Shown here in pieces: positions 265 to 63,772 of a stretch of 64,000 bases of DNA. Below the pieces are notes generated by a model. It worked only from the letters and a program-made list of their open reading frames with translations. It did no database searches and was not told the origin of the DNA. This DNA is from Diadema setosum (lineage: Eukaryota): positions 37,680,597 through 37,744,596 of the forward strand of contig NC_092698.1 in NCBI RefSeq assembly GCF_964275005.1, read 5' to 3'. The translations under genes and the position numbers were made by a program. Within the stretch, counting starts at the first letter, position 1. The number at the start of each line of letters is the position of its first letter.

Positions 265-655
265 TTAAAGGGATCGTATAGTTTTGGTTGAGACCTAATT
301 TCAGGTGTCTAACATTTTTTGGTGAGATAATGAGAAACCTCCTATGAAATATGAAAGAGTATGTAATTCCATAAGAAATGCAACGTTTATTTGATGAAAA
401 TTGGTTTTGAAATGGCTGAGATATCCAAAACAGAGTGATTCTAATAAAGTGTGGGACCCACATTTTATTACGATCGCTTTGTTTTACTTTGTTTTTGGAT
501 GTTTCAGTCATTCCAAACCTGATTTTCATCAAATAAACTTTGAATTCCTCTTAAAATGGTATGCTCTGTACTATTTCGTAAGTGTTTTCTTGGTATCTCA
601 CAAAAACTTAAAAGCCAAATTCTCATCTCCACCAATACTATACCCGTCCCTTTAA
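265..655. mobile_element. Family-A MITE copy (391 bp), termini TTAAAGGGA...TCCCTTTAA
   Basis: Terminal inverted repeats are ttaaagggatcgtatagttttggttgagacctaatttcaggtgtct and agaaaacacttacgaaatagt...ccctttaa. The element is internally palindromic (ggctgagatatccaaaac ... ctttgttttactttgtttttggatgtttcagtc). Three near-identical copies occur elsewhere in the window. Confidence 0.75.
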
Positions 656-17918: not shown

Positions 17919-18020
17919 GTCAAGTCGGCTGTGACGCGTCTCGGCACCAACAAACTTCACATCGTGTCTGCTTCCTCCGATGGGACGGTCAAATTTTGGG
18001 ACAAGGCAACTTTCACTCAG
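17919..18020 (+). CDS. WD40-repeat protein, exon (phase 0-0); VKSAVTRLGTNKLHIVSASSDGTVKFWDKATFTQ
   Basis: Acceptor tttatctctgtag ends at 17918. Donor gtaatt at 18021. SASSDGTVKFWD is a canonical end of a WD repeat. It follows a roughly 13-kb intron. Confidence 0.7.
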
Positions 18021-20188
18021 GTAATTTATAAAAATTGGCTTGTGGAGACCTTTTTTATCATAATATCTTTCATTTTCATCGCCATCTTGATGATATTAAT
18101 GCATGATTGGACTCTTCTAATATGTTACCTCACAAGCAGGTAATATCGGTTTCATTCGCAGTATCATATACGATAACCATTCTCCAAATTGTGACCCCCT
18201 CCTTGTTTAATATGAAAGAAAATAAAATGTGCTGTTCCGTGACGGTGATGGAGGGGTGCGGTCACCAAACAGGAGAGCTTCCCCCGTGTCAACACCCACA
18301 CGGAGACCCCTTCCTTCCCCCCCCCCCCCCCCCACGTTAAGAGGACTGACACCGCTTAACCTTGCAGGATCTTTCTATCCAAACAATATCTCAGCGTCAC
18401 CTCACTCATCATAGTCTGTGGGACCCAAGGTTGGGATTCCTCAGGGAACTCGTAGCCAAGACCAAGGTCTGTGGTTACCCCGGGAGCAAAGACCTCTTCT
18501 CAAGATTTTTTCACTCCAAGGAGTCGAAGGGGGAAGTCGATGAGAGTTTTCAATGCCTAACCTGCTAGGTCAGTGTAATTCAGGCATCCCAAACGTGCTC
18601 ACGGAGGCTTGGAAATATTGGCAGACAGGGAATTGTGGTTTCTACCTGTTCTCGATGCTCCATTGTCTCTAGTTTTTAACTCCTGTTAAGGGCATTTTGG
18701 ATATCATACTGCTGTCCAGGATTATTCCGTATTAGGAAGAGTGAGCCTAAAGGGTTTGATTCTTAGGACAGAAATAGGCTTCTTGCTCTTGGCATGTATG
18801 AAAATCGAGGAAAGTAAAATGATAGGAATGCTAACCAGTGATATATTTGGAGCTAGTATCAGATTTGTAGTGTTGTCTTCAGATAGAATGATAAGACTGC
18901 CATGAGAGATGTATTCTCTTCTAGTCACTTACCTTTGGTTCTTCATTTTGCATCCTTTAACTGTAGCTCTGCGCAAACTTCAGCAGTTAGTCATCACTTT
19001 CTCTTCATTTTACACCATACTTGGGGAATTTTATGCCTGTTCCATGAACTTTCCTTTCTTCTATCTGTGATGATGTATCTCTTTCTCCTGTATTCTTTCG
19101 CCTCAACTCTTATGTTCATTCTCCTAATCATGCCCCTCACTCTCTTTCTGTCATTCTTCCCCCCCCCCTCTTTTTTCTCTCCTTTTTTTCACTCTCTCTT
19201 TCTCTTGCTCCCTTTCTTTCTATCCAAACATATGTTTTCAATGTATATGTTCATCAAGAATACCTAAATGACAAGCTACAGTTAGTCCCATGTGCAGAAT
19301 GTGTCATATCAGCTGGAGTGTTAACTGCTCCTGCACTCATCGTGTGAATTCCCCTCCAATGACTGGCATCTCCTAACCTCTTCTGACTGGATGTCAAAGT
19401 AATTCACTCGTCTCCCAAGTCCAAGGTCGCCTAATTCCCGGCATTTGGGTTGCCCTGCGAGTGCACAGAGGCTTGGTGAAGAACACATGCAGCATGGCTG
19501 TAGGGTGGAATGTTGGACCAAATTAGGTCAGTCCATGATCTTCTCTGATTTCCCTCCGACCTTTCTCCATGGAGACAGCCTGGTCTAGAGAGGAAGCCGG
19601 TAGCGTGTCTTCCATTAGGATTTACTCCTAGCTGTCTCTGTCTCTCGGAGACAAACTCCCTCCTCCTTGAAATCCATCAAAAAACTGGATTTAGTAGCAA
19701 TTTTTCTGCTGAGACATTCATATCAATATCCATCCCACGGACCACGGAAAGTCAGCTGTTCATGAAAGTAGAGCTGAGTCAGTGTTATCCAGCCTTACTG
19801 TGTACGTAATGTACATATCATGCAGTTACCTGTTGTTTCGTCATGTAGTGTGATATGAAAATTGAATCAAACCAATCAGATCATAGAATTAGACTTGGTG
19901 AGCCGTACAGGCTTCAGTGATCATATCATGCAAGCCTCCAAAACAGACAAAAAATAACTTTTTAAGCCAAGAACGGTACGTGCACTGTGTCACGTTTATG
20001 TCGAGCAAAGATTGTGATTTTTAGAGCGCGTTACAAGCGAGCCACTGTGGGATTTATGAGCTTTTTCATTTCTCCCTTATCTACAACATTGAGTCATGTC
20101 TACATATAGGTTAGGGAATGTTCTGAGAATGTGACATATCGATGCAGTCCTCTGTGCTAGTCACCATCTTGAAACTATAGTCTTAATA

Positions 20189-20760: not shown

Positions 20761-21538
20761 TTAAAGGGATCATATAGTTTTGGTTGAGACTTAACTTCAG
20801 GCTTTGATTATTTTTTGGTGAGATAGTGAGAAACCTCTTATGAAATATGAAAGAGCATGTTATTCCATGAGGATTTCAACGTTTATTTCATGAAAATTGA
20901 TTTTGAAATGGCTGAGATATCCAAAACAGAGTGATCCTAATAAAGTGTGGGACCCACACTTTATTACGATCTTTTTGTTTTTATTATTATTATTATTATT
21001 TATTTGGCAATTCAATATACAATACAAGTTGACATAAAATACAAACAGAAAATCGTATTACATGATATGAAAATTGTGGTGGTTCCAGGTGCATGCTGCT
21101 GGTTGCCAGGGGAGGAAAAGGCAAACTTAATCACCGAGTCTCGAGACCTTCCTCCTTGACCAGTGCATGCACCCAGAATCAGCTATATCGATGTAAAACA
21201 GATACAAACATTATCAAATAATACATTATTACACAAAAATGCTCTGAATTCAAACATAAATATGACTAAAATTATAACTGAATATAACCGATGCCCTATC
21301 CTGATCTGATGGTGTAAGCTCATCCAGCAAAACTGGTGATTTGATATTCTTTCAAAAAGAAACTGTTTTACTTTGTTTTTGGATGTTTCAGCTATTCCAA
21401 ACCCGATTTTCATCAAATAAACTTTGAATTCCTCTTAAAATGATATGCTCTGTACTATTTCATAAATGTTTTCTTGGTATCTCGCAAAAAAGTTAAAGCC
21501 CAATTTTCATCTCCACCAGTATTGTACCATCCCTTTAA
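20761..21538. mobile_element. Family-A MITE copy interrupted by a ~385-bp nested insertion (~20975-21360) that begins with an (ATT)n tract
   Basis: The left half (20761-20975) and right half (21361-21538) are collinear with 265-655. The interior has no similarity to the MITE. Confidence 0.7.
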
Positions 21539-23774: not shown

Positions 23775-24164
23775 TTAAAGGGACTGTACAGTACTGGCTG
23801 AGGTGGGGATTCATGTTTTGAACATTCCTAAGTGAGATAATGAGAAACCTCTTATGAAATATGAAAGAGCATGTAATTTTAAGAAGGATTTGATGTTTAT
23901 TTGATGAAAATTGGTTTTCAAATGGCTGAGATATAAAAAAAAGTGATTATAATAAAAGGCGACAGGCTACGCCTTTTATTAGGATCTCTTTGTTCACCTT
24001 GTTTTTGGATATCTCAGCCATTTCAAAACCGATTTTCATCAAATAAACTTATGATACCTCTTAGAATAGCATGCTCTTTGACAACTCATAGAGTGGTTCT
24101 GAATATCTCGTAAAACGTTAAAAGCTAAATCCTCACCTCAACCAGAACTGTACACACCCTTTAA
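23775..24164. mobile_element. Family-A MITE copy (390 bp), more diverged
   Basis: Collinear with 265-655: gagataatgagaaacctcttatgaaatatgaaagagcatgtaat ... gatgaaaattggttttcaaatggctgagatat ... ccctttaa. Confidence 0.7.
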
Positions 24165-27100
24165 ATGCACGTATCTTGTGGTGTAGCCACTTTTTGTCAG
24201 GTTACCTTCAGTACTAAACAGTGGAGAGGAGGTTATATGGACATTGGCTCTTTGCATTTCAGAAACTAAAGGTCTGTTGGCTTTTCATCATTGATTAACT
24301 GGAGGATTTCACCATAACCCGGACACACCTCACATACCTTTCTCCCATGTATTATCTCACACATCCCTGATTTCAAGAGAGATAAATAGAGAAAGAAACA
24401 ATTGTTGTTCCTTTCTGTGTTGGTCACCCCAAACAAACTTTTCTATGTTTCTGTCCTATTTCTATCTGTACTCTGCACCTTGTCTCTACTGTATCTTTCT
24501 CTATGGAAGTTATTTCTCTTCTAGTTGTGCTCTTGTTTGAGAGCATGTTTTTCCAGCCAATCTCTAAATTCCGCTCCAAATTCAGGTCACATGGATTATG
24601 ATTTGAGAGTCTTCCTGAATGGGGCTATTAGTATTTTGTGGGGAGTGGCTGTCATATTGACAGCATTGTAAACTGAAACAGGAGACAGGCTAAATTGTAC
24701 TTCCAGAGTTATAACAACAAAGAAACAAATTACAACAATTGATTTATGATGATACATGTGACAGGAACTCTTGAAACTGAATTGAAAAAAAAAAAATCCC
24801 CTTTGGCAACTTATGAAGTACCTGTCAAAGTTTGTTGATAGTGTGTTTTGAAATAACAGAATATTGAGGAAATAGGTAAATTCTTCTAACAAAAATAGAT
24901 AGCTGTAATGCTACTATCTATGCTGTTGCAAGTTAGATTCTTAAAATAAAGTTTAGTAGCAGATGAAAAAGAAAAATAAATTTTCATATCTCTTCTTATC
25001 TCAAGGCTAGGAGAGGCTTCTTCTTTTTTCTTAATGTTGGCCCTTTAAGAAAAAAAATTGTCCTGACTTGGCACAGACTGTCTCACCTGGGCCCCGAGTT
25101 TCCTGTGCAGGTCTACGTCATGGTGAAGTTAAGATACATGGCTCACTGCTGTTCTCGTTTCCTGTCATCCCAACTTACCTTGGCAAGACCCGACATGTTA
25201 TCTCTTTCTCCAGCTATCACGCAGAGAACCCATCGGAATGAGACATTGAACAGGAAACATCCAGAGCAGTCATGAAATTTTCATCCTTGACTTTTATTTC
25301 TCCTCTTCATACTTAGATATTAAAGAAGTAGAAATTTTATGACACAGACAAGCATTTTTCTCTTTCTTTTATAGGAATGTTGAGGTCTCATATTCAGGAC
25401 TGTCATGAATGGTAGCAATCAATCAAATTCTTTCTTTATTTTTTTTTTATTTGCTATGATTTTGTGACAGTTAAATGCAACCACTGACTTATGAGTAACT
25501 TCCTTGTCGAAAGTCATTTAAAGAGCCTCACAATGACCTGCCGTAAATTTGGGCCAAAAGGAAATTTATTGATTTCTCTACGCAGGTTATAGTTTTCATG
25601 TCAGGGAATTGATCTGTATGACAGTTCATATGAAAAGAGAAGATTTGTTGTTGTTGTTGTTGCTCTTTTTAAAGAGCATGATATACATGTACCTTACTTG
25701 TGCCCCTGTGGGGTGGTCATCCATACCTGTTTATAAAGTATTGGGCAATTAAACCTCTTCACTTTCTCCTCATGGGAAATGAAGGGAAATCCCATGTACT
25801 TGAGTTGTGTTTCACTAGTTCTGTACTGTCCTTTCACGCAACACTTTATCTCTATACATAAGGGGGGGGGGGGGGGGGCTTGCCAGCACCCATCATTTGT
25901 CAGACTGACCCTTATAGAAGTAGAACTGAGGGCCTTTTTGTTAGTGTCAGATGCAGTGTCCACAGGACCTAGTCACCTTCTGTATGGTAGTGTGGATGTT
26001 TCCATCTGCACTTTAGATTTGACAAGTCATGTGCAGGAGCAGATGTGAGCTGTGTTGTGTTGTGGAACATTCCCATTCGACTAGATCATCTCACACTAGG
26101 GTTTTCCACAAACAACATCCCGTAGGTCTAACAGGTGCCGTGTCTGGTTGTGGTGGGAACTTTAAGTTCATGTAGCCACAGTGACCACATTGACTTCTCA
26201 TGTCTATTTTCACTCCAGTGTTGAAGTTTTTTTGTGGCACATTGAAGATTACTCACGCTTGACCAACCAAAATGAACGTCATTTATCGTGCATGCAAGCA
26301 AAAGTGAAGTTTTTTGCTCCCTCCTAATACCCTCAGTATCTCTCACTAAAAACACAAGACTCTGTGCACCTCATGTAGGCCTCTAACAGGTAGAAATTTT
26401 AGATATGATATAAGTCACTAGATGAGTTAGTTTTCAAAGGTGGCAAGCTATGTCTCAGATGACTAAAAGTGACCAGTCATCTTCACTTAGGCAACAAGCG
26501 AAACAGATGACACCGAAGTGATTTTTAAGTATCGAGGAAGCTTACTTACCTTATTTATTTGTTTCCATGACAACTTGTCAGACTTACTGACAGATTCAAA
26601 TTTAAACCCTGAAAACAGGTCTCTGATGACAAAACTGGAATCTTGAATAGAACCAAGTCTCTTGTGTTGATTGTACTTTGTAGAGATCATCAGAATTACT
26701 TGCTATGAGGAAATATGACACAAATTACTTAGGTAGCTGGAGACAGAGTGAGAAAAAAAATAATTGGTCAATTTCCCTGCCATCTCAAAGGTTAATGCAT
26801 GTATTATCCAATAAACAACTTCTTTGAATTAACTTCTTCGATTGGTGTAAAGTTGTTAAAGGGAAGGTAAACCCAAAGAGCAATGTGGATTGAGTGAAAG
26901 CAGCAACATTAGTAGAACACATCAGTGAAAGTTTGAGAGAAATCGGACAATCGATGCAAAAGTTATGAATTTTTAAAGTTTTGGTGTTGGAACCGCTGGA
27001 TGAGGAGACTACTAGAGGATATGACGTATGAGTGGACAAAAATACAAAGAAAATATAAAGGATATTCAACAAAAATTCACTTTTCTAGAATTATGAAAGA

Positions 27101-27239
27101 GCAGTGGACCAACCGCTTTCAGAAAGCAGGGGGAATAATTGCTACCCTTAACATATGTCAATATCAAGTTGATGGATTTTGTAATTTTCATGAAAAATGG
27201 ATTTTTGTAGTATTTTCTTTATATTTTCTTGATATTCCC

Positions 27240-29485
27240 AGGTAACATGCCAATATGGGACCCATATGGGCATACTCCGGGCCACGTGGGCCATCTGGGT
27301 TAGGGTGAATCCCATATGTATTTAGCGTCAGACCCATATGGGATAACCCATATGGGTTTTTTAATGGGACTGCCCATGTGGGTATCATAATGGAAATGAA
27401 CTGGGCAAACCCATCTGGGTAAGATTGTTAAATGCCCATATGGGTTACACATGTGAAAAAAATGGGTAGACCCATCTGGGTGAGATATGTAAATACCCAT
27501 ATGGGTCTCATATGGGTATAAAATGGGCAAAGCTACCTGGGTAAAATATGCAATGCCCATATGCATACCATATGGGAATCTACTGGGTGAACCCATCTGG
27601 GTAATAAATGTAAATATCCATATGGGCTTCATAAGGGAATGAGCTGGGCATACCCATCTGGGTAAAATAAGTGAATGCCCATGTGGGTTTCGTGTGGGAA
27701 ATAAATGGGCAAACCTATCTGGGTGAGATATGTAAATATCTACATGGGTTTCATATGGGAATAAGCTGGGCAAACCCATCTGGGTAAAATAAGTAATTGT
27801 CCATATGGGTTACACATGTGAACAAAATGGGTAAACCCATCTGGGTGAGATGTATGTAAATGCCCATATGGGTTTCATATGGGTATAAATTGGGCAAAGC
27901 TATATGGGTAAAATATGCAAAGCCCATATGCATACCATATGGGAATCTACTGGGTGAACCCATCTGGGTAATAAATGTAAATATCCATATGGACTTCATA
28001 TGGGAATGAGCTTGGCATACCCATCTGGGTAAAATAAGTGAATGCCCATGTGGGTTTCGTGTGGGAATAAAATGGGCAAACCCATCTGGGTGAGATATGT
28101 AAATATCTATATGGGTTTCATATGGGAATAAGCTGGGGAAACCCATCTGGGGTAAAACAAGTAAATGTCTATATGGGTTACACATGTGAAATAAATGGGC
28201 AAACCCATCTGGGTGAGATATGTAAATATTTATATGGGTTTCATATGGGAATGAGCTGGGCAAACCCATCTGGGTAAAATAAGTAAATGACCATACGGGT
28301 TTCACATGGGAAATGAATGGGGAAAACGGTCTGGGCAGTACATGTAAATGCCCATATGGACTCCATATGGGAAGTAAATGGGTTAACCCACCTGTGTAAT
28401 ACATGTAGCCTATATGCCCATATGGGCTCCATATGGGCATGGAATGAGCAAACCCATATGGATGAGATATACAAATGCCCATATGCATACCATATGGGAT
28501 ACAACTGGGCAAACCGATCTGTGTGAGATCTGTCAATTTACATATGGGTTTCATATGGATATGAAGTGGGTAAACCCATCTGGGTAAGAGCTGAACATAT
28601 CTTTTTTGGTAACATATGGGAAAGAACTGGGCAAACCCATCTGGGTAAGAGCTGACCATATCTTTTTGGGAACCTTATGAAAAAAAAAAAACACTAGGCA
28701 AACCCATCTGGGTAATAGATGAACATATCTATACCATATTAGAGCGAACTGGTCAACCCATCTGGGCAAGAGATGAACAAAATTATGTGGGTACCATATG
28801 AGCATAAATTTGGCAAAACCCATCTGGGTAGGAGATAAACATATCTATTTGGGTACCATATGGGAATGAACTGAGCACAAATCTGGGTAGGAGATAAACA
28901 TATCTATGTGGTACCATGTTGGAATGAACTGGGCAAACTCTTGAGTAAGAGCTGAACATATCTTTTTGGCTACCATTTGGGAAAGAATTGGGCAAACCCA
29001 TCTGGGTAATAGATGAACATATCTATGTGGGTATCATATTATTGGAATGAAGTGGACAACCAATCTGGGTAAGAGATGAACATATCTATGTGGGTGCCAT
29101 ACGGGAATGAACTTGGTAAACCCATCTGGGTTAGAGATGGACATATCTATTTGGGTACCTTATGGGAATGAACTGGGCAAACCCATTTGGGCAGGAGATC
29201 AACATATTTATGTGGGTAAAATATTGGAATAAACTGGGCAAACCCATTTGGGTAGGAGATGATGTGGGTACCATACTGGAATGAACTGGGCAAACCCATC
29301 TGGGGAATAGATGAGCATATCTATTTGGGTATCATAGGGGAATGACCTGGGCAAACCCATCTGGGGAATGGATGTAAATGCTTATATGGGTTTCATATGG
29401 GGTCAACCTGGGTAGAACCATCTGGGTAAGATATGCAAATGCCCATATGGGATTTACATGGGAATGAACTTGGTAAACCCACCTG
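27240..29485. repeat. Satellite-like tandem array with a ~60-bp unit containing CCCATATGGG and ACCCATCTGGGT; higher-order repeat of ~375 bp (e.g. 27409-27786 vs 27786-28160); a variant unit from ~28560
   Basis: The motifs recur with regular spacing. Spurious stop-free ORFs appear in the window's six-frame ORF track (27300-29001). Confidence 0.8.
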
Positions 29486-32400
29486 CTCATCATAACACCC
29501 CTACCTGAAAATGGAACTGACCCAGAATTTGAAAAGAGGGTCCGGTTCATGCCCGTTATGCAGTGCAGTATATGCATTGGCATTAGGACTGATTGATCTC
29601 CTTCAGTACAGTCAGAGCTTGGTGATCATCTGTCTTCGCCTCATTTTAGGTAAGTAGATAAACTTATTTTTGTCAGCATGTTGTATTTAAAGTACCTAAG
29701 ATGTTGATTGCAAGTTATTGAAAAAGATAATCCCAATTCGGCAAGCTATAAAGGCAATAACAAATATGTAAGTTGGGATGGTATGTGAGCATGTTGCCTC
29801 CATGGATCATCCATAGAATATTATACATGAAGATAGGTGTATTCAAAGGTTGTAGGCCTGCTATGTCATATGATTTTGTTTAATTCTAAATATTGCTTTA
29901 TAGATTTGATTTGGGGTTTAATCTCATACTCTGTGTATAGAAATTAATGCTGTTTAGCATTATTTCATTTTCATTTCAATACTTCAGATCACTGAGTTTC
30001 ATTTAAACAAAATGGAGTAACAGTATTTGAGAAAACATTTACGCATACAGAATTTTACAAATAATTGCAATAAGGGAAAACACTAGCTGTGAGATGTATT
30101 GAAACAAAGGGAGCTGATGAAAGCACTCGATCAGTGATTTTAATTGCAGTTCACTCATAGTTTAAAGTATGCATTATGATGATATCAAATCAGAAATTAC
30201 GTTTTTACATATTATAATGGAAACATTAACTATAGGATAACTAGACTCGCTATTTCCGGGTTCACCACAAAAGCCCAAGTGGAGAATTAAGTTTATGCGC
30301 AGTACTGTGTAATGGTTTGGTATGAACACGTCCCACACAGTATTGGTAGTATACAGCTTTTTAGTATTCAATCCTGAACCATCTAAACACACCCACACCG
30401 TACGGTACTTAGTATGAGGAGCTTGCAAGGTCATTCAACCTCCCCAACTCCACAGCATCTCTGCAGAAGGCTGTGGTCAGTTGTTTGGGTTATAAAGTCA
30501 CAAAGGTCACATTCCATCAGGGAGACTCACCTCCCTGATTCCATAAGAAAACAGTCTCAAATGAGTGGACAACATAATATATGCATATTACCTAAAGCTT
30601 GGCTCTATTAATGTACAACTGGAAAGCACAAGTATTTTTTGCAGTTACCATAACCAAATACTAAGCGTGTGAGAAAGAGTCTTAGCTTCTGAACAGTATT
30701 GCAATTAGTTTTACTGTGACATGCATAAAATGTATTTAGGAGGAGATCTGAGTGAGTGAAGCCTAACTGCGATTTTCATGCTCCTGTATTATCAGAGATG
30801 TGTATATACAACGTGTACGTAACACTTTAAATAAACACACGTATATAGGCCTACGTTTCACAGTAGTAATCAGTATAGCAGTGGCATTTGGAAATAATTA
30901 TATGAAAAGAAGTTAGGCCTACTGATATTTGTGTCATCATAGCTCTAGTTGGCATATTTTTTTCTGTCTACTGTAAATATGTTTTAATAGTTTATGTTGT
31001 TTAAGTTGTATTACTCCTTCTCAAAAGAGGTAATTGATAAGCATAATTTTCCCTCTTATGATAGAAGTACAATTGTAAGATAGTTTGGGGGTTTAAAGGC
31101 TATCTAGTGTATTGTTATGTCTCAAATTCCTTCTAAGAAATAAGTCATGTATAGGTTTATAAATCATACCAGATTATGAGCTTAAATAGATTTAATTTAC
31201 AGGCCCTACTGGTAGTCAATATCGAGTAAATAGCAATCAATTGTAGGTTTAACTTCATATCGTTTGTCCAAAATATTTATTGACCACTCGCAATCTTTTT
31301 TTTTTATGTGTACACATATTCCTTTCTCCGTGTCTGCCTTTCTGTTCACTTAATCAAATTATACTCAAAATTTACTCAAATTATAGCTTCTCCTAAATCT
31401 TAACTGTCATTTACTGTTTAACGGATAATCAAAACTTGTCCTTTGATCTTCCTGGGTTTGTTTTACAATCAAATGAATTAAAAGATTCATTCAAAAAAAA
31501 AATCTTCGTAATGAGATGAGGTGTAAGTTGATATCTTTCTACTCACCCTCAAGCAGTAACTTATTTTGCAATGTTCTAAGTCGTTTATCCTAATTCGTAA
31601 TTGTTGCAATTTCCTTTGCTCTGGATGTATAAAAACTATATTTATCCCTTGACTGATTTTGTTTTCTTGTTTCACAATCAAATGAAGATTGAAATACATT
31701 GCATTTGCAATGTGTATAATTCGATATTATTTCCATTATATGAAAATGAAAACCAATGGTAATACATGTACACCGAAAATATTTCTGTCCCTCTCTTCCT
31801 CTTTCTCTCTCTCTCTTTCCCTTTGAAGCTTATTCATTTTGATAGTTTTAAACTACGTATATGACCCTCTAGTTATGAAGAAAGTCGAACAAATCCTGTA
31901 AGAGTATAGGCTAACAATTGTATACTGAATTTTTAAAACCCATGTAACTATGCATTCCTTTATACAGTCATGTATTCAAATACTGTACAATGTAATGTTG
32001 CATGCCTGTATCTCTCAATAATTGAATCTAGCAATATTTCTGATGAAAAACATGTGTAACACATTTTATATGAAGATTGTAATTCCATGAATATATTTCT
32101 CCCTCTGTCATTGCAGATCTGGTGAAGAGAAAAGATGGACAAACACAGCAAGACTTCACGCAGCATACATTTTAAGGTCTACACAATAAGAAATCAGAAC
32201 AGTGGAATAAAATAGCTGGATGGACAAAAACAAAGGCGGTTTGCAGCACAGGTTCAGGGAGAATTAGATGGCAACGCCTAAATTTCAAAAGTGCATAAAT
32301 TTTGACAAAATTGTGCAATTTTCTTCAAACCTTACTGAACTGTTCTTTTCATATTGCTGCATTCACTCAATCAACGTTTATTTTGGGTATTCCCCTTACA

Positions 32401-32877
32401 GAAGCTGTTAAAAAGATCTCACCATTTCTAGCTTTTACGCTTGTTTATCAAGTAATATTATATGAATGCCTATATTCAGCTGAGGGACACAAGACAACAG
32501 ATTTCAATTAGAACAATGCACAAATATATCCACTTTGAGAATAAGATACTTGATCTATTGAGTACATACATTCAAGAGTGAATTGAGGGGAACAATACTT
32601 CTCTATGTGTAGGTCATTGGTGGTGGTGGATGTACAGTGTATATACAGTATGTTTACATGGTATTTAGGTAGCTTTCGAAGATGTGCCACCTTACTAGGG
32701 CTGTTCATCGAAGAAATAAACAAACATTCTACACGCTAAGTGGACTGCTCATAACAGAGGTTTGATGTCAGTTTTCCATCAACTCAGTGTGCCAGTGTCT
32801 CCTGCCATTGCTGCTGGGCAAGCTGTGGTTAATCATAATGAGGTAGGCCTATTGACAATATGGTAAACTCACCGTTG

Positions 32878-33830
32878 GCAAAAATATTAGCCACGTTACC
32901 CAGATGGGACCCACGGTGTACCTATATGTGCTATCTTGGAGCCCCCATATGGGTCCCATGTAAATATTGGGTGCAAATTCCTAGGGGCTCCATATATGCA
33001 TACCCATGTGGGACCCATGCTAAAACCCCATCTGAAGCCCATATGGGAAACCCACATGGTGCCCACATATTTACCACATACATTACCAAGATGGGTCCCA
33101 TTGGGATCCAATATGGGTCATTTTGGATTGCCCATATGGGTCCCATGTAAATCTAGGGTGCAAAATCCTAGGGGGCCCGTATGGGCATACCCATGTGGGA
33201 CCCATGATGAAACCCCACACAAAGCCCATATGGGATAACCCACACAGTACCCACATATTTACCACATACGTTGCCCAGATGGGTCCCACAAGGAACCCAT
33301 ATGTGTCATTTGGGATCGCCCATATGGGTCCCATGTAAATCTTGGGTGCAAAATCCTAGGGGCCCCATATGGGCATACCCATGTGGGACCCATGATGAAA
33401 CCCCACACAAAGCCCATATGGGATAACCCACACAGTGCCCACATATTTACCACATACGTTGCCCAGATGGGTCCCACAAGGAACCCATATGTGTCATTTG
33501 GGATTGCCCATATGGGTCCCATGTAAATCTTGGGTGCAAAATCCTAGGGGCCCCATATGGGCATACCCATGTGGGACCCATGATGATTTCCCAGCTAAAG
33601 CCCATATGGGATAACCCACACAGTGCCCACATATTTACCACATACATTACCCACATGGGCCCCATCGGGAACTCATATGGGCCATCTGGGACAGCCCATA
33701 TGGGTCCCATGTAAATCTTGGGTGCAAAATCCTAGGGGTCCCATATGGGCATACCCATGTGGGACCCATATTCAAACCCATATTGGGCCCATATGCAACC
33801 CATATGGGCATGTTACCTGGGTTGTAGTCC
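32878..33830. repeat. Tandem array of ~180-bp unit, about 5 copies (e.g. 33283-33463), orientation opposite to the array at 27240-29485
   Basis: The unit tacccagatgggtcccac...cccatatgggtcccatgtaaatcttgggtgcaaaatcctaggggccccatatgggcatacccatgtgggacccatgatgaaacc recurs in tandem. ACCCAGATGGGT is the reverse complement of ACCCATCTGGGT from the left array. Confidence 0.8.
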
Positions 33831-34723
33831 ACTCATACGTCATAACCTCTAGTAGTCTCCTCATCCAGCGGTTCCAACACCAAAACTTTAAAAATGCATA
33901 ACTTTTGCATCGATTGTCCGATTTTCTTCAAACTTTCACTGATGTGTTCTACTAATGTTACTGCTTTCACTCAATCCACATTGTTCTTGGGGTTTATCTT
34001 CCCTTTAACTATGGGAACTACTCTTAAGGAATAATGGTTACATTTTTTTTCCCCGAAAGATCAAGCAAATAGTCTAATAGTTTGCATGTATCAAACAAGA
34101 AAAAGAATTTTGCGTATTTCATAAAAATATGTTTTGAAGCCATCAGATACAGGCAACAGAGGCCTTGTAGAGAAAACAGTTAGTTTTGGGTTTTGTACTT
34201 TCTGAATGATACGTATTTTGTTAATTGTTAGTACAAGTAAAATAATTTCTGCGCATCAGATGAATAACCATGGGAACTACTCTTAAGACTTAAAAGTGAT
34301 CAGATTTTTTTTTTTTTTTTTTTTTACACAAAGATCAAGCAAACAGTCTAATAGTTTACATGTATCAAACAAGAAAAAGAATTTTTCATATTTCATTACA
34401 ATATGTTTTGAAGCCATCAGATACAGGCAACAGAGGCCTTGGAGAGAAAACAATTAGTTAAGGTTGTTTCTTTTTCTGTACTGTCTGAAGAATATGTACT
34501 TTGGTCATTGCTAGTTAATGATTTCTAGGCATCAAATGAATTATGCAACCATCTGAAAAGTAATGGAAAGAGGTTTGTAAGTCTTACAAATGGAGAAAGG
34601 ATGATTATTTCATTTCTGTCATCAAAAGATGGGCGGCAGTGCAGTAGTAGCCAGGGCTTATTGGATAAATTTCCTACTACCACGTAGAAATCTAATTTCA
34701 GAAGAAGGCTATCTCACCCAAAA

Positions 34724-34773
34724 ATGTTAGAAACCTGAAATTAGGTCTCAACCAAAACTATACTATCCCTTTA
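34724..34773. mobile_element. Solo terminal fragment (50 bp) of family-A MITE
   Basis: agaaacctgaaattaggtctcaaccaaaactatactatccctttaa matches the right end of the family. Confidence 0.55.
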
Positions 34774-35936
34774 ATCTCTCAAGGCAATCATTTCTTGTTT
34801 AAACTGAGCATTTCTGGGTTTTTTTAATTCCCCCCCCCCCCCCCATTGGTTTATGCCACATGTGGGGAAATTAAATCAAACATTAATCAGGGTGGTTTGA
34901 CACCCTGGACTAGTATATAAAATTTGTATGATTTCTGTGATGGTGATAAAATCTTCTGACTATGGTTAGAGGTTGAAGAGTGAAAGAAACTTGACAATAA
35001 TGTGTAAATGGCAGGAATTAATGATGCAAACTATGTGTCACTTCCTGATTCTGACGTCTTTAAGTTTTATTGTAATTTTCATCCTAAATGCATATTTGTA
35101 GATTTAAGTTATGGTGATGATGTAAAAATGTGCCCAAATCCTCCAGGGGACTTTTAAGAAGTTCCGATTCTCTTTGAGCGGTAGAACGAATGGAGACAGG
35201 AATGTAGGGGCTCAGTCTGAATCAGGATGCCCCCCTGAGATGGGGCAAAAAACTTTAGCCATTACCTTAAAGGAAGCACGCTGTTCTGGTTGTATCCTGC
35301 TCTCCTTACCAACTCTCTTTTATAATCTTCTACACTGCTTTCATCTTTCCCCTTCATATGATGTTTGGGGGTTCTGTTTGTGTGGTCTTTATTGTATCCC
35401 TGAATTTGTATGCCATTCCATGTTCACATCAAGTTGACTTCCGGTAAATCATGATTCGGTATTTTTACCTTCCTCATTTTCTCTCTCTAGTACTGTCCTT
35501 AGTGCACAATATTCTTTTTTTTTGTCTCCTTTCCCTTCTCTTTATATATCTTTTTGTCTTTTCTTCTCTTTTCTTGTTTTTGTCAAAGTATTTAGATGCA
35601 CTTATACCTCATTCCTATTCCCTGGGATATCACTTTTTTCATTTCAACGAGTCTTGTCACTTGTAAGGCTGATCATCAGATGATGTGAGTTGAATTAGAT
35701 GGTTGAATAAAAATGCTGTCAGAGACATTCCAAAGTTTGTGAAATGAAAATCAAGTCATTCCTGTCTTTGTGTTGCTTGATTTTCGTAGTGTGCTCTTGA
35801 TTTTGTATCGTTAAAGGACATCTTAGAGTGCAGTGCCAGGGCAAGAGGATTCTATGCAGAGATCGACTCTTCTTCATCTTATATATTTGATGGAGAAAGT
35901 TGAAGTAGTTTCACATTTTATCCAAATTTGAACCAG

Positions 35937-38566: not shown

Positions 38567-39132
38567 TTAAAGGACAAGTTCACCTTCATTAACATAAGGA
38601 TTGAGAGAATGCAGCAATATTAGTAGAACACATCAGTGAAAGTTTGAGGAAAATTGGACAATCGATGCAAAAGTTATGAATTTTTTAAATTTTTGTGTTG
38701 GAACCGCTGGATGAGGAGACTACCAAGGCTCGTGATGTCATATGAGTACAACAATATAAAGAAAATGTAAAGAAAATTCATCATATTTTCACTTTTTTCG
38801 CATTATAAAAGAGCACTTGACTTGCCTCTTTCTAAAGGCAATTGGAATAATATTACCCATAACATATGTCAGTAACGAGTCAAGGGAATGTGTACTTTTT
38901 TCAAAAGATGAAATTTTGTGAAATTCTCTTTATATTTTCCTTATATTGTTGTACGCATGTGACATCATACACTGCATTAGTCTTCTCATCCAGCGGTGAC
39001 TTCACAAAAACTTCAAAAATTCATAATTTTTGAACGGATTGTCCGATTTTCCTCAAACTTTCAATGATGTGTTCTACTAATATTGTTACATTCTCTCAAT
39101 CCTTATGTTAATGAAGGTGAACTTGTCCTTAA
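38567..39132. mobile_element. Intact family-B MITE (566 bp, long hairpin; TTAA at both ends)
   Basis: The termini ttaaaggacaagttcaccttcattaacataaggattgagagaatg and cattctctcaatccttatgttaatgaaggtgaacttgtccttaa are perfect inverted repeats. There is further internal self-complementarity, for example ggaaccgctggatgaggagac with its reverse complement gtctcctcatccagcggttcc. There is no ORF. Confidence 0.8.
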
Positions 39133-39220
39133 AGACATTTTGTTTGATTCCTTTTTACTCCTGCACTTCAGCCATATGTAGAAATTGTTCTAGGGCAATC
39201 ATCCCCTAGACAATTGCCCC

Positions 39221-39322
39221 AGACCCTGACCCTAACCCTAGTCCTAATCCTGAACCTAATCCTAACCCTAACCCAAACTCTAACCCTAAACCTAACCTTA
39301 ACCCTAATCTTAACTCAAACCT
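39221..39322. repeat. Degenerate telomere-like (CCCTAA)n tract
   Basis: ccctgaccctaaccctagtcctaatcctgaacctaatcctaaccctaacccaaactctaaccctaaacctaaccttaaccctaatcttaactcaaacc. This is the reverse complement of (TTAGGG)n with substitutions. It lies about 90 bp from the MITE at 38567-39132. Confidence 0.6.
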
Positions 39323-48700: not shown

Positions 48701-49440
48701 TCAAAGCTGAACCTTGAAATCTACATCTATATATATATAAAACTTAAGACAAAGAAATAAAAAATTTATACATGTACAAAATTCTACGTCATTATTTACA
48801 CCAAACATCATATTAAAAGGCAAAAAGGTATATACCTTTTTGGTCTTTTCCTCTATGAAATCAAATAATTTTTTCCATAAAAGTAGTGTTTTAGGACAGT
48901 GTACAAATAGATGAAAAGCAGTTTCCTGTTCTTGACTACAAAACATACAGTCTGGGTGTTCTATTTTTTTAATCTTAAATAAGAATGCATTTAAACCAAT
49001 AATATCATGAAAAACCTTAAAATAAAAGGAACGAAGTTGTGTTTCAACAGTACATTTATAGTTATTCATATGAATAACATCCCACTGAACTGTTTCATCA
49101 TTAATGGAGAAGAGGTCTTTCCGCTTACCTATTCTTTTCTCACATGAGGAGTCACAATATACATTTCTTATTACCGAATAAGCATGTTTAGAATTTTTTT
49201 TTTTCACCAGCTCTGACACTATTTTATCAAACATATCTTCATCGGTATCCAAGGAAGAATCAAACCATGAAAGATAGATACCATTCATTAAAGAAAGGAA
49301 AGAAATCTGAAAACAAATGGGTGTTTGACGATGCAAACAAAATAGAATAAGAATTAGGAGTAGGAAAATGTAGAGTTTGTTGAAGAAGGCCGCTTGGGGA
49401 AAGAAGGTGAATTGTATTAAGAAGTGTGAATACAAAACAA
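48701..49440 (-). mobile_element. 5'-truncated non-LTR retrotransposon ORF2 C-terminal fragment with CCHC motif
   Basis: A 244-aa ORF on the - strand ends with HPDCMFCSQEQETAFHLFVHCPKTLLLW, a C-x2-C-x11-H-x4-C motif typical of the LINE ORF2 C-terminus. The poly-T run at about 48137-48152 on the + strand could be its poly(A) tail on the - strand. Confidence 0.55.
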
Positions 49441-50250
49441 AACAAAAATCATCTCTTAAATAGAAAAGATCACAGACGATTAAGAAGGAGAAGGGAAAAA
49501 ATGATACTCATGTCGATTAGTGCTCGAATTTTGCAGAACATGATTGATGCCACCTTTCTGCAAGAGCATGGATGGCGTCACTAAGAGCTCCATGGTTTAA
49601 GAAAGGAGATGGAGTGAAAACGAACAGGCTGACGCTGTTCATTCAAGGTCAGAATTAATCGAGAACACTCGGTGAGGAAACGATGAGGATGTAACCGAAG
49701 TACGATGATCTGAAGTAACGCGACTTGACCTTGTACGAGGACAACAGGATTTCCCCGCGTATGGAGAGAGCTGAGCTCGTGCGAAGGGATAAGCAGAGAC
49801 TCGGCAGGGGAGCGAGATGGAGAATGGTGCGAACTTTATTCAGTGCCGTCTTAATTTTTGATTTAATACGAAAATACACATAGGATCTACTGCTCAAAGG
49901 ACATAATTACCTTAAACCTAATACACAACACTCACACACGCATGCACGCAAACACACATGCAGAGTGAACCTCTTTTCGCTTTTAATTTTGTTTTGCTTT
50001 TGTCATTGCGTTTGCTTTTGCTTTTGTTCTTGAGTTTGTTTTAATCTATACACAAGCAGCGTTTACCCAGGACGGGGGGGGGGGGGGGGGTGAAAGATGA
50101 AAGTTGAGAAAATTATTTGCCGTCATGTACAGTTAGATATATATTGAACATGAAAACATGTCCACCGTGTGAAGGCTGACAGCTTTAATCAAACGTCTCA
50201 CTTCAGAGCCTGATGGTGCATATGAGATGTACTTATAGAACTATAGACCA

Positions 50251-54609: not shown

Positions 54610-55655
54610 CTACACATATGCATCAAATGTGATATCTTGAACATTTTTGAAATCACTGCTCCCAAAGGTAAACTGGACCTTTAACTGAAGAGGTAACTGA
54701 TTCCACAATTTTGGTCCCATAACGGAAAAAGCACGATCACCATACCCATGTTTTACTCTGGGTGTTTGGAGTAAGAATGCATCTGATGATGAACGTAGCC
54801 TTCGTGTCGGATTGTATTTTTGAACAGAATTACTTATGTATATTGGGGAAAAAGAATGAACTGAATGATGTACTAATAACAGAATCTTGAAAATAATCCT
54901 TTTTTCTACAGGTAACCAATGTAAGGAACGGAGAACTGGTGACATGGAATCAAACTTATTAGTAAAAGTTAACAATCGGGCAGCAGAATTTTGCAACCGT
55001 TGAAGTTTTGTGACATCTTTTTTTGAAAGATTACACAACAATGAATTCGAAAAATCCAACCGAGAAGAAATCAAAGCATGAATAAGTATCTCAGCTGCAG
55101 ATTTAGACAAATATTTCCTTATGAAACTTAAATTACGCAACTGATATCGAACATTCCGCTGAATATGAGTTACATGACTTCGAAATGACATTTCCTGATC
55201 AAATATGACACCTAAATTACGGGCTGTTTTCGACGGAGTAATGCAAGTGCTACCGATGTTGACATGACATGACTGATAATCAACTTTGCTTAACATATGC
55301 TTTGATCCCAATAACAGAAACTCAGATTTATCATCATTTAGTTTAAGGCCATTGGATGTAAGCCAAATTTTCAGGTCTTGCAAACATGCTTCGAGTTTTA
55401 CAATGGCGGATGACAATGAAGACACAGTGGGTTTAAAAGACAAATAAAGTTGTATATCATCCGCATAACAATGATAACTAATACAATGCTTGCGAAATAC
55501 TTCACTAATTGGTTGCATATACAGAGAAAAAAGCAGCGGGCCTCCAACAGAACCTTGAGGTACACCAAACTTTGTCATAGTTTTACAAGAGGTAGAATCA
55601 CCAATTCTGACATAATGAGATCGATCACATAAGTAGGATATAAACCAATCACCTT
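54610..55655 (-). mobile_element. 5'-truncated non-LTR retrotransposon (L2/CR1-type) ORF2 fragment: RT domain plus C-terminal tail
   Basis: The - strand frame reads ...SYLCDRSHYVRIGDSTSCKTMTKFGVPQGSVGGPLLFSLYM...YADD...LQRLQNSAARLL...LRSLHWLPV...RAFSVMGPKLWNQLP. These motifs are characteristic of L2-clade ORF2, as established for the family. The frame extends upstream of the first Met to about 55653, and there is no endonuclease or N-terminal RT. A possible 3' tail is the (AAT)n tract at 54008-54040. Confidence 0.7.
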
Positions 55656-57456: not shown

Positions 57457-58042
57457 TTAAAGGGATTGTATAGGTTTGGTGGAGAGGAGGCTTCAGATTT
57501 GCTTTTTTTTGTGTAAGATAATGAGAAACTACTTACGAAATATGAAAGAACATACAATTCAAAGTATATTTGATGAAAATCGGATTTAAAATGGCTGACA
57601 TATCTAAAAAACAAAGCGGTCCTATGAATGTTGGTTCTAACCTTTATTAGGACCACTTTGTTTTTGGATATCTTAGCCATGCCATTTCAAAACCAATTTC
57701 ATCACATAAACCACTTGTGGAATATGAAAGAACATACAATGTATAAATCCCACGAGGAATTCAAAGTTTAGTTAATGAAAATCGGTTTAAAATGGCTGAG
57801 ATATCCAAAAACAAGTGGTTCTAAGAAAAGGAGAGACCAATCTTTGATTAAGACCACTTTGATTTTTGGATATCTTAGCCATTTCAAAACCAATTTTCAT
57901 CATACAATATCAAATAACCTTTGAATTCCTTAAAATTTTATGCTCTGATATTTTATACGTGGTTTGGCATTATCTTACATCTAACAAAAACAAGTTAAAA
58001 ACCTGAAGCCACATCTCAACCAAAACTACATCATACCTTTAA
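57457..58042. mobile_element. Family-A MITE copy with an internal ~185-bp partial duplication (1.5 copies)
   Basis: It starts ttaaagggattgtatag and ends cctttaa. The segment gaaatatgaaagaacatacaat...aaaatggctga[gc]atatc[ct]aaaaa occurs twice, at 57538 and 57722. Confidence 0.65.
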
Positions 58043-62733: not shown

Positions 62734-63772
62734 TCAGAGGTCCAAACCTGTATCAATAACAGCCACATCTTCACTGGACGTTCCCCCGTAGAGCACGTCT
62801 AGGGCTCTCTTACAGTCACTCACTGTGGTCTTGGCAAGGAATTGGCACTTTAGCTGGTCTGAGAGGGACACGCCCCCCTCTTGGGATGCACTCCCTAACA
62901 GTGCTGAGATTGCCATCTGTGAGACAGCGTTGGCACGCTCCACCGCCAACCATCTCTCCAGTGCTCCATCCAGGGCACCTGGTGTCGCGGCATTCTCTGT
63001 AAGAAAGGTGGCAGGTGGGCCCCACAACAAGCACTGAAGTAGAGTCACGGCTTGATCACAAGTTAGCCTGTCTTCAGGCTTCTTAGTGAGAAGTTTGCAG
63101 GCAATGGTATGGAGGCCCTGGGAGAGAGGTGACTTGACAGGAATGTGGGGTAGATCTTCTTTGGCATAGTCAGAGATGATAAGGCTTGTGCGAGTTGAGA
63201 ATGGGTTAGCATGATGTAAGAACTCGTACACAAGGATACCCACATCAAATTCATGGCATTTTTGCTCCAGCTTGGATGCCACACCCCCCTCAGCTGGTGA
63301 CAACACAGGAGCCGCGGTTACTACTTCCGCTCCGATCAAGTGGTTGATGACCAGTCTCTGACCACCACCGGGCAGCCCACTGTTGACCAGCAGGAGGTGA
63401 TCCAACTTAAGGCTCTCCAGACACATGTGGTGGGATTGCAGCTGGCACAAACCTTGGCACAATTGCAGCAACATTGTGGCGACGTCTCGCTCATAGACAT
63501 CCGGGAGGCACTCATGCTTTTCTGCATTCTGAGTCACATACTCGGCAACGTTTACTGCCGGCAGACAGTCCGTGATGATGACGGCCGTCTCAAAGGAACC
63601 GTCTGGTTGGGGAGAACCACGAGACTTGCGCTGCTCCAGTAGTGAGGGGTTGATGGTGACAGTGTCTTTGGCAGCATGGCTGACTGAGATGAGGTTGGGT
63701 TGTGGAAACATGGATCTCGTAATGTCCGCCATGTGGAGTACTTGAGATGTCTTGCTGGGATTACAGCATACC
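62734..63772 (-). CDS. Terminal coding exon of a protein-kinase-like (probable pseudokinase) gene; partial gene, upstream exons lie outside the window
   Basis: A 332-aa ORF on the - strand (62734-63732) with non-repetitive, GC3-rich codon usage. It shows kinase C-lobe landmarks with degenerate catalytic motifs. The HRDLKxxN position reads CLESLKLDHLLL. The APE..DVWSLGVILYELL region reads SPAEGG...FDVGILVYEFLHHANPF. The subdomain XI region reads KKPEDRLTCDQAV. The frame stays open 13 more codons upstream of the Met, up to a minus-strand acceptor tttttatatttctgtag at about 63773-63789. The N-lobe is too short to be complete, so the exon probably begins at that acceptor. Confidence 0.6.

Follow-up and report, generated by a model that had tools for sequence, protein, structure and literature searches.

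Family A, a palindromic repeat family at TTAA sites in Diadema setosum, is most likely a Kolobok/T2-type foldback MITE

The hairpin element at positions 265-655, which recurs within the 64,000 nucleotides of Diadema setosum DNA analysed here (the window; GC content 37%, 7 open reading frames of at least 120 aa), raises the question of which type of mobile element it represents, if it is mobile at all, and which transposase would have moved it. A first interpretation of the letters of the window (the sequence-only reading) described it as a MITE family, referred to as family A in the following, compared its TTAA ends with those of piggyBac-like elements and regarded the mobilising transposase as unclear. 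The dispersed copies, defined ends and whole-length hairpins described below support a non-coding foldback MITE-like family. Family A most likely represents a non-autonomous cut-and-paste transposon (class II), namely a foldback MITE of the Kolobok/T2 type; a Kolobok DDE transposase acting in trans would move it by cutting at TTAA|AGG and integrating at TTAA.

Within the window, family A comprises four full copies and one truncated end, together occupying 2.9% of its length. All of these places were recovered with copy 1 as BLAST query against the window, and an nhmmer profile built from the family A arms matched the same five places only, with copy 2 matched in two parts (20761-20981 and 21364-21538). 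Each of the five places named by the sequence-only reading was thus found to hold family A sequence, and only the extent of the terminal fragment had to be revised, from 34724-34773 to about 34695-34774. Furthermore, the 8-mers TTAAAGGG and CCCTTTAA occur 12 times in the window, compared with 2.8 expected occurrences (100 order-1 Markov simulations, maximum 7).

The canonical unit measures 390-391 bp, flanking TTAAs counted. Copy 1 (265-655, plus strand, 391 bp) forms an imperfect palindrome from end to end, carries TTAA at 265-268 and 652-655 and features the termini AGGGATCGTATAG.../...CCCGTCCCT. Copy 3 (23775-24164, plus strand, 390 bp) is approximately 80% identical to copy 1, has the termini AGGGACTGTACAG and AGGGTGTGTACAG and possesses an apex hairpin of its own. 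The previously proposed size of about 390 bp applies to these two copies and has to be qualified for the others. Copy 2 amounts to 778 bp because an insert of 388 bp (20976-21363, minus strand) is nested just past its apex. Its left part (20761-20975, plus strand), which comprises the left arm, the apex and the beginning of the right arm, is about 90% identical to copy 1, as is its right part (21364-21538, plus strand; 90%), which terminates with TCCCTTTAA; without the insert, copy 2 measures 390 bp and is 90.0% identical to copy 1. The insert is bordered on both sides by the 6-bp direct repeat TGTTTT, shows an (AAT)n end on the minus strand and looks like a retroposon or SINE that is foreign to family A. 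A tRNA scan of the insert for a SINE head found none, no Rfam family was assigned to it, and a second copy is absent from the window. Copy 4 (57457-58042, plus strand, 586 bp, right terminus AGGTA) belongs to a diverged subfamily and contains an internal partial duplication, its parts being a left arm (57457-57632), a partial right arm (57641-57712), a partial left arm (57707-57833) and a right arm (57842-58042). The collapsed version of this copy comprises 385 bp and is approximately 81% identical to copy 1. Finally, the truncated end (34695-34774, minus strand) is of the left-arm type, is 95% identical to positions 1-65 of copy 1, carries TTAA at 34771-34774, and its inner 15 nt pair back onto the terminal part.

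Pairwise identities among the family A copies range from 79 to 90%. Copies 1 and 2 and the truncated end form one subfamily (90-95% identical), and copies 3 and 4 constitute older subfamilies, each separate (approximately 79-81% identity to the other copies). The retroposon nested in copy 2, the duplication inside copy 4 and the truncation of the fifth member indicate that the family A copies present here are old and decaying, and even in the youngest subfamily identity reaches only 90-95%.

Stop-free frames across copy 1 encompass 85-96 aa, and the stop-free frames through family A yielded neither a Pfam match nor a homologue in the protein collection. The family A element is non-coding, and the earlier statement that it contains no ORF therefore holds in any useful sense. 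Moreover, no DNA-transposase domain, that of Kolobok included, was detected in the window by a Pfam scan that covered stop-to-stop frames of 70 aa or more over the first ~46 kb and longer frames only beyond this point. Accordingly, an autonomous partner must be located elsewhere.

Regarding the insertion sites, the sequence-only reading had named extended flanking identity as the mark of segmental duplication. The flanks of all family A copies are unique within the window and mutually unrelated, and the element boundaries are sharp, which indicates independent insertions rather than segmental duplications. TTAA was found at 11 of 11 ends, namely the eight ends of the four full copies, the truncated end and both ends of a 7153-bp element of a second family described below, and direct repeats of 3-8 bp outside TTAA are absent from the five elements. 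With the central TA as sole target, the invariance of the outer T and A would have to be due to chance (P ~3e-6 for 11 ends), and a 3-bp TWA target would offset the inverted repeats by one base. Since the outer bases are invariant and no repeat lies farther out, TTAA is the only sensible target-site duplication, in agreement with the earlier suggestion. In the search for empty sites within the window, each left flank joined through one TTAA to the right flank was used as BLAST query and returned self-hits only; because no empty site was found, we infer the duplication of TTAA on insertion from the sequence of the ends. At copy 1, almost identical 12-13-mers occur on both flanks (252-264, CTCTGCTGTTAAG; 657-668, CTCTGCTTAAAG) and are absent at the other copies; these may have been left by repair or may derive from a local repeat that was already in place.

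Read inward from TTAA, all nine family A ends start with AG and seven of the nine with AGGGA. The two deviating ends, the right end of copy 3 (AGGGT) and that of copy 4 (AGGTA), differ by one base each and belong to the most diverged copies. The termini of the element are AGGGAYNGTATAGT, also given as AGGGAYNGTATAGTTTTGG. Shared ends had been claimed for all copies, but the closing TCCCTTTAA is not common to all, as copy 3 closes with ACCCTTTAA and copy 4 with TACCTTTAA.

In order to assign family A to a superfamily, published terminus definitions were considered. The T2-MITE family is defined by a TTAA target together with inverted repeats that carry AGGRR at their ends (PMC6004289), and Kolobok elements are set apart from piggyBac by their termini, combining TTAA duplications with 5'-RR...YY-3' ends (PMC9587614). 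Full-length Xenopus Kolobok copies likewise show TTAA duplications and AGG... ends, e.g., AGGGGAACTATCATGA (PMC6004289). In family A, each of the four full copies is bordered by TTAA on both sides and the truncated end carries it as well, 5'-RR...YY-3' termini occur at all nine ends, and AGGGA next to TTAA, in accordance with the T2-MITE definition, at seven of nine. Beyond the first 5 nt, similarity to the published Xenopus Kolobok repeats is at chance level (best match 9/16 versus a null mean of 8.3), so that family A is T2-type by signature and does not fall into any described Xenopus subfamily. A literature search for the exact family A termini and core yielded no match, a generic search for TTAAAGG was uninformative, and family A sequence was unmatched in the KolobokP consensus supplements.

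Likeness to known systems extends from the ends to the architecture. Family A resembles Kolobok-N2_XT, which is 496 bp in size, non-coding and equipped with palindromic internal repeats (PMC12676858), and insect Kolobok MITEs with a mean size of ~386 bp (PMC5199201) in TTAA flanks, 5'-RR...YY-3' termini, size, lack of coding capacity and palindromic interior, whereas its subterminal sequence shows no relationship to inverted repeats published for Xenopus Kolobok elements or to the KolobokP consensus supplement. In Xenopus, where the T2 type was originally described, T2-MITEs (Xmix/T2-A1, T2-C; Unsal & Morgan 1995; Hikosaka et al.) are, like family A, short, non-coding and divided into several subfamilies. 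However, only the 5-nt terminal motif agrees, the host organism differs, and family A is palindromic over its whole length, whereas Xenopus T2-MITEs have only short terminal inverted repeats. Because of the deviations from AGGRR, the chance-level subterminal match and the lack of a transposase or an empty site in the window, the Kolobok/T2 assignment is based on two short sequence signatures in combination with the architecture. Given these definitions, the piggyBac-like framing of the sequence-only reading should be replaced, since TTAA together with AGGRR and 5'-RR...YY-3' fits T2-MITEs and Kolobok elements (PMC6004289, PMC9587614). Similarly, the mobilising transposase, previously called unclear, is most likely of the Kolobok type by the published terminus definitions.

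An unrelated second family in the window (family B) bears on this assignment. Its small element (38567-39133, plus strand) is a 567-bp foldback MITE with the structure TTAA|AGGACAAGTTCACC...GGTGAACTTGTCCT|TAAA, i.e., with TTAA at the left only and TAAA as right flank, and shares 79% identity with its reverse complement. Judged from its T2-type ends, family B should be placed in the same class as family A, of which it is not a copy. Over its first 16 nt, the small element agrees with the A4 inverted repeat of Xenopus Kolobok at 12 positions (P ~0.013, uncorrected), which may serve as a hint only. A degenerate interstitial telomere-like (CCCTAA)n array of approximately 14 units is located 90 bp downstream of this MITE (39223-39321).

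The larger family B member, a 7153-bp derivative (26856-34008, plus strand), is flanked by TTAA on both sides, with TTAA|AGGGAAGGTAAACC as terminus, and possesses 188-nt terminal inverted repeats that are 94% complementary; family B ends read TTAA|AGGGAAGG... (termini of the 7153-bp element) and TTAA|AGGACAAG.... Family B ends account for the left 381 nt and the right 187 nt of this derivative, and the interior of approximately 6.6 kb is non-coding. Inside the element, a satellite array of 35 units of 61 bp (27379-29485), an array of 4.7 units of 188 bp (32893-33769) and a family B fragment (32272-32393) were observed. The derivative looks like a MITE with acquired and amplified tandem repeats, comparable to Xmix, which carries the amplified internal segment Xstir (PMC6004289). 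Pearl/DTC84 tandem-repeat MITEs were also considered as analogue and rejected because of their 'AA' duplication and different architecture. Directly to the right of the 7153-bp element, a tandem duplication with a 274-bp period and approximately 88-92% identity is present (34009-34540); it was rejected as empty site of the element, since its upstream sequence is unlike the element's left flank. The truncated family A end (34695) lies about 150 bp past this duplication.

That the window contains two families sharing TTAA|AGG ends argues for the past operation of a T2/Kolobok-type transposition system in this genome. In the proposed mechanism, the mobile unit would be the imperfect palindrome of approximately 382 bp bounded by 5'-AGGGA...TCCCT-3', with TTAA on either side. 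A Kolobok DDE transposase supplied from elsewhere in the genome would recognise the terminal ~25-35 bp with the common core AGGGAYNGTAYAGTNYTGGYKGAG. Kolobok transposases are of the DDD/E type and feature a C/DxxH signature. The enzyme would cut the element out at the TTAA|AGG junctions and then insert it at TTAA, thereby duplicating TTAA, and copies may multiply through repair or replication-coupled copying. Family A would contribute no protein of its own to mobilisation. We infer both the transposase involved and the mode of amplification.

Among the alternatives, an origin from another or undescribed superfamily is the least improbable, although clearly unlikely. Here, either TTAAAGGG as a whole would belong to the inverted repeat of an element lacking a recognised duplication, or another transposase generating 4-bp duplications would prefer TTAA. 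TTAA could formally be the outermost element sequence, the window contains neither an empty site nor a transposase, and the subterminal sequence lacks significant similarity to the Xenopus Kolobok inverted repeats. Against this origin, TTAA combined with AGGRR is the exact published T2/Kolobok signature, the same signature recurs in family B, and no duplication extends beyond TTAA. Superfamilies with shorter targets, namely Tc1/mariner (Stowaway-like; 2-bp duplication TA) and PIF/Harbinger (Tourist-like; 3-bp duplication TWA), require an outer T and A left invariant by chance or asymmetric inverted repeats, as calculated above. Foldback (FB-type) elements have long inverted repeats together with a 9-bp duplication; family A shares the long inverted arms, but the five elements lack a 3-8 bp direct repeat outside TTAA.

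Far less probable is a derivation from piggyBac, in which family A would have been moved by a TTAA-targeting piggyBac transposase. Elements of this superfamily duplicate TTAA and have 5'-CC(Y)T...A(R)GG-3' termini; MITEs derived from them include human MER75/MER85 and bat npiggy. Such MITEs agree with family A in being short, non-autonomous and flanked by TTAA, which was found at every family A end. However, they start with CC(Y)T, whereas family A is bounded by AGGG...CCCT, i.e., by 5'-AG...CT-3' termini, and none of its nine ends starts with CC, as the sequence-only reading had already recognised in stating that the subterminal sequence is not that of piggyBac. It is precisely the termini that divide Kolobok from piggyBac (PMC9587614).

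The hairpin architecture was evaluated separately. Each copy aligns from end to end with its reverse complement (68-70% identity for copies 1 and 3), and the identity between the two arms is 70-76%. Modelled as single-stranded DNA, copy 1 folds into one long hairpin with -72 kcal/mol (z = -9.4) and copy 3 into one with -96.7 kcal/mol (z = -17.7), and in both cases none of 100 shuffled sequences folded as well. These results bear out the long imperfect palindrome described previously. In an RNAalifold analysis of the four copies, 138 consensus pairs were predicted, 11 of which show double-sided changes, and the covariation term of +3.5 provides no net bonus. Practically negligible is the idea that family A consists of segmental or tandem duplications or of structured hairpin-RNA genes (miRNA or other hairpin-RNA precursors) instead of transposons: strong hairpins, the double-sided changes and sub-threshold Rfam matches to hairpin miRNA precursors could be cited in its favour, but the boundaries are sharp between unrelated flanks, no Rfam match was obtained at gathering thresholds, the sub-threshold ones reach 43 bits versus a gathering score of 211 bits and were obtained for both strands, which indicates generic hairpin similarity, the covariation term is unfavourable, and both the defined inverted repeats and the TTAA adjoining every end are characteristic of transposons.

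For the evolution of the arms, informative sites in quartets of aligned arms were counted as supporting the same arm between copies, the two arms within a copy, or a crossed pattern. Copies 1 and 2 gave 26 : 0 : 0 and descend from a common master element that was already asymmetric. For copies 3 and 4 the ratio of 1 : 7 : 1 favours agreement of the arms within each copy, and copies 1 and 3 (6 : 6 : 3) prefer no pattern. Matches between the arms of the same copy are concentrated at the apex and within the outermost 35 nt. The simplest reading of this pattern, suggestive only in view of the small counts, would be that the two ends bound by the transposase evolved jointly and that the palindrome was occasionally regenerated when subfamilies were founded. 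That selection, and not mere inheritance, maintains the whole-length hairpin of family A is considered improbable; in its favour, paired changes specific to individual subfamilies preserve the complementarity of the arms in these two regions, as seen in the 1 : 7 : 1 ratio of copies 3 and 4, and 11 of the 138 consensus pairs are changed on both sides.

Concerning the genomic context, the window has a eukaryote-like make-up and contains LINE reverse-transcriptase fragments; two remnants of non-LTR retrotransposons are present, the first at 54610-55653 (minus strand; RVT_1 reverse transcriptase, E = 2e-16) and the second at 48701-49507 (minus strand; zf-RVT, E = 1e-8). A long exon at 62734-63771 (minus strand) encodes a C-terminal pseudokinase domain of the PEAK1/PRAG1 family (PDB 6bhc, E = 6e-42). 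Database searches with this exon returned a single relative, 62% identical, on the 12-kb ENA contig ERZ26222911:ctg781922, on which no family A copy was found. A short frame at 17919-18140 (plus strand) contains the WD40-like motif VSASSDGTVKFWD and a weak, sub-threshold match to Beta-prop_TEP1_C (E = 8e-4); if this frame is a host exon, as it may be, copies 2 and 3 might lie within introns. Screening of metagenome contigs with a 21-mer of the family A core returned three matches, all of them chance matches in unrelated, coding-like DNA of higher GC content, and the same 21-mer had no match among viral contigs.

With respect to annotation, families A and B should be masked as Kolobok/T2-type MITEs, and neither as piggyBac elements nor as 'unknown'. 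Family A leaves the current understanding of DNA transposons unchallenged and represents a case of ordinary repeat annotation within the known Kolobok/T2 class, and the 7-kb family B member adds a further case of tandem repeats riding on a MITE. If the family A hairpin were under selection after all, a single-strand hairpin intermediate might be used or needed in its transposition, or the family might persist as a source of hairpin RNAs or regulatory elements that the host tolerates, a role suggested for long-lived Xenopus T2-MITEs. The occurrence of two T2-type families within 64 kb suggests that Kolobok-driven MITE amplification has shaped this genome, as in Xenopus.
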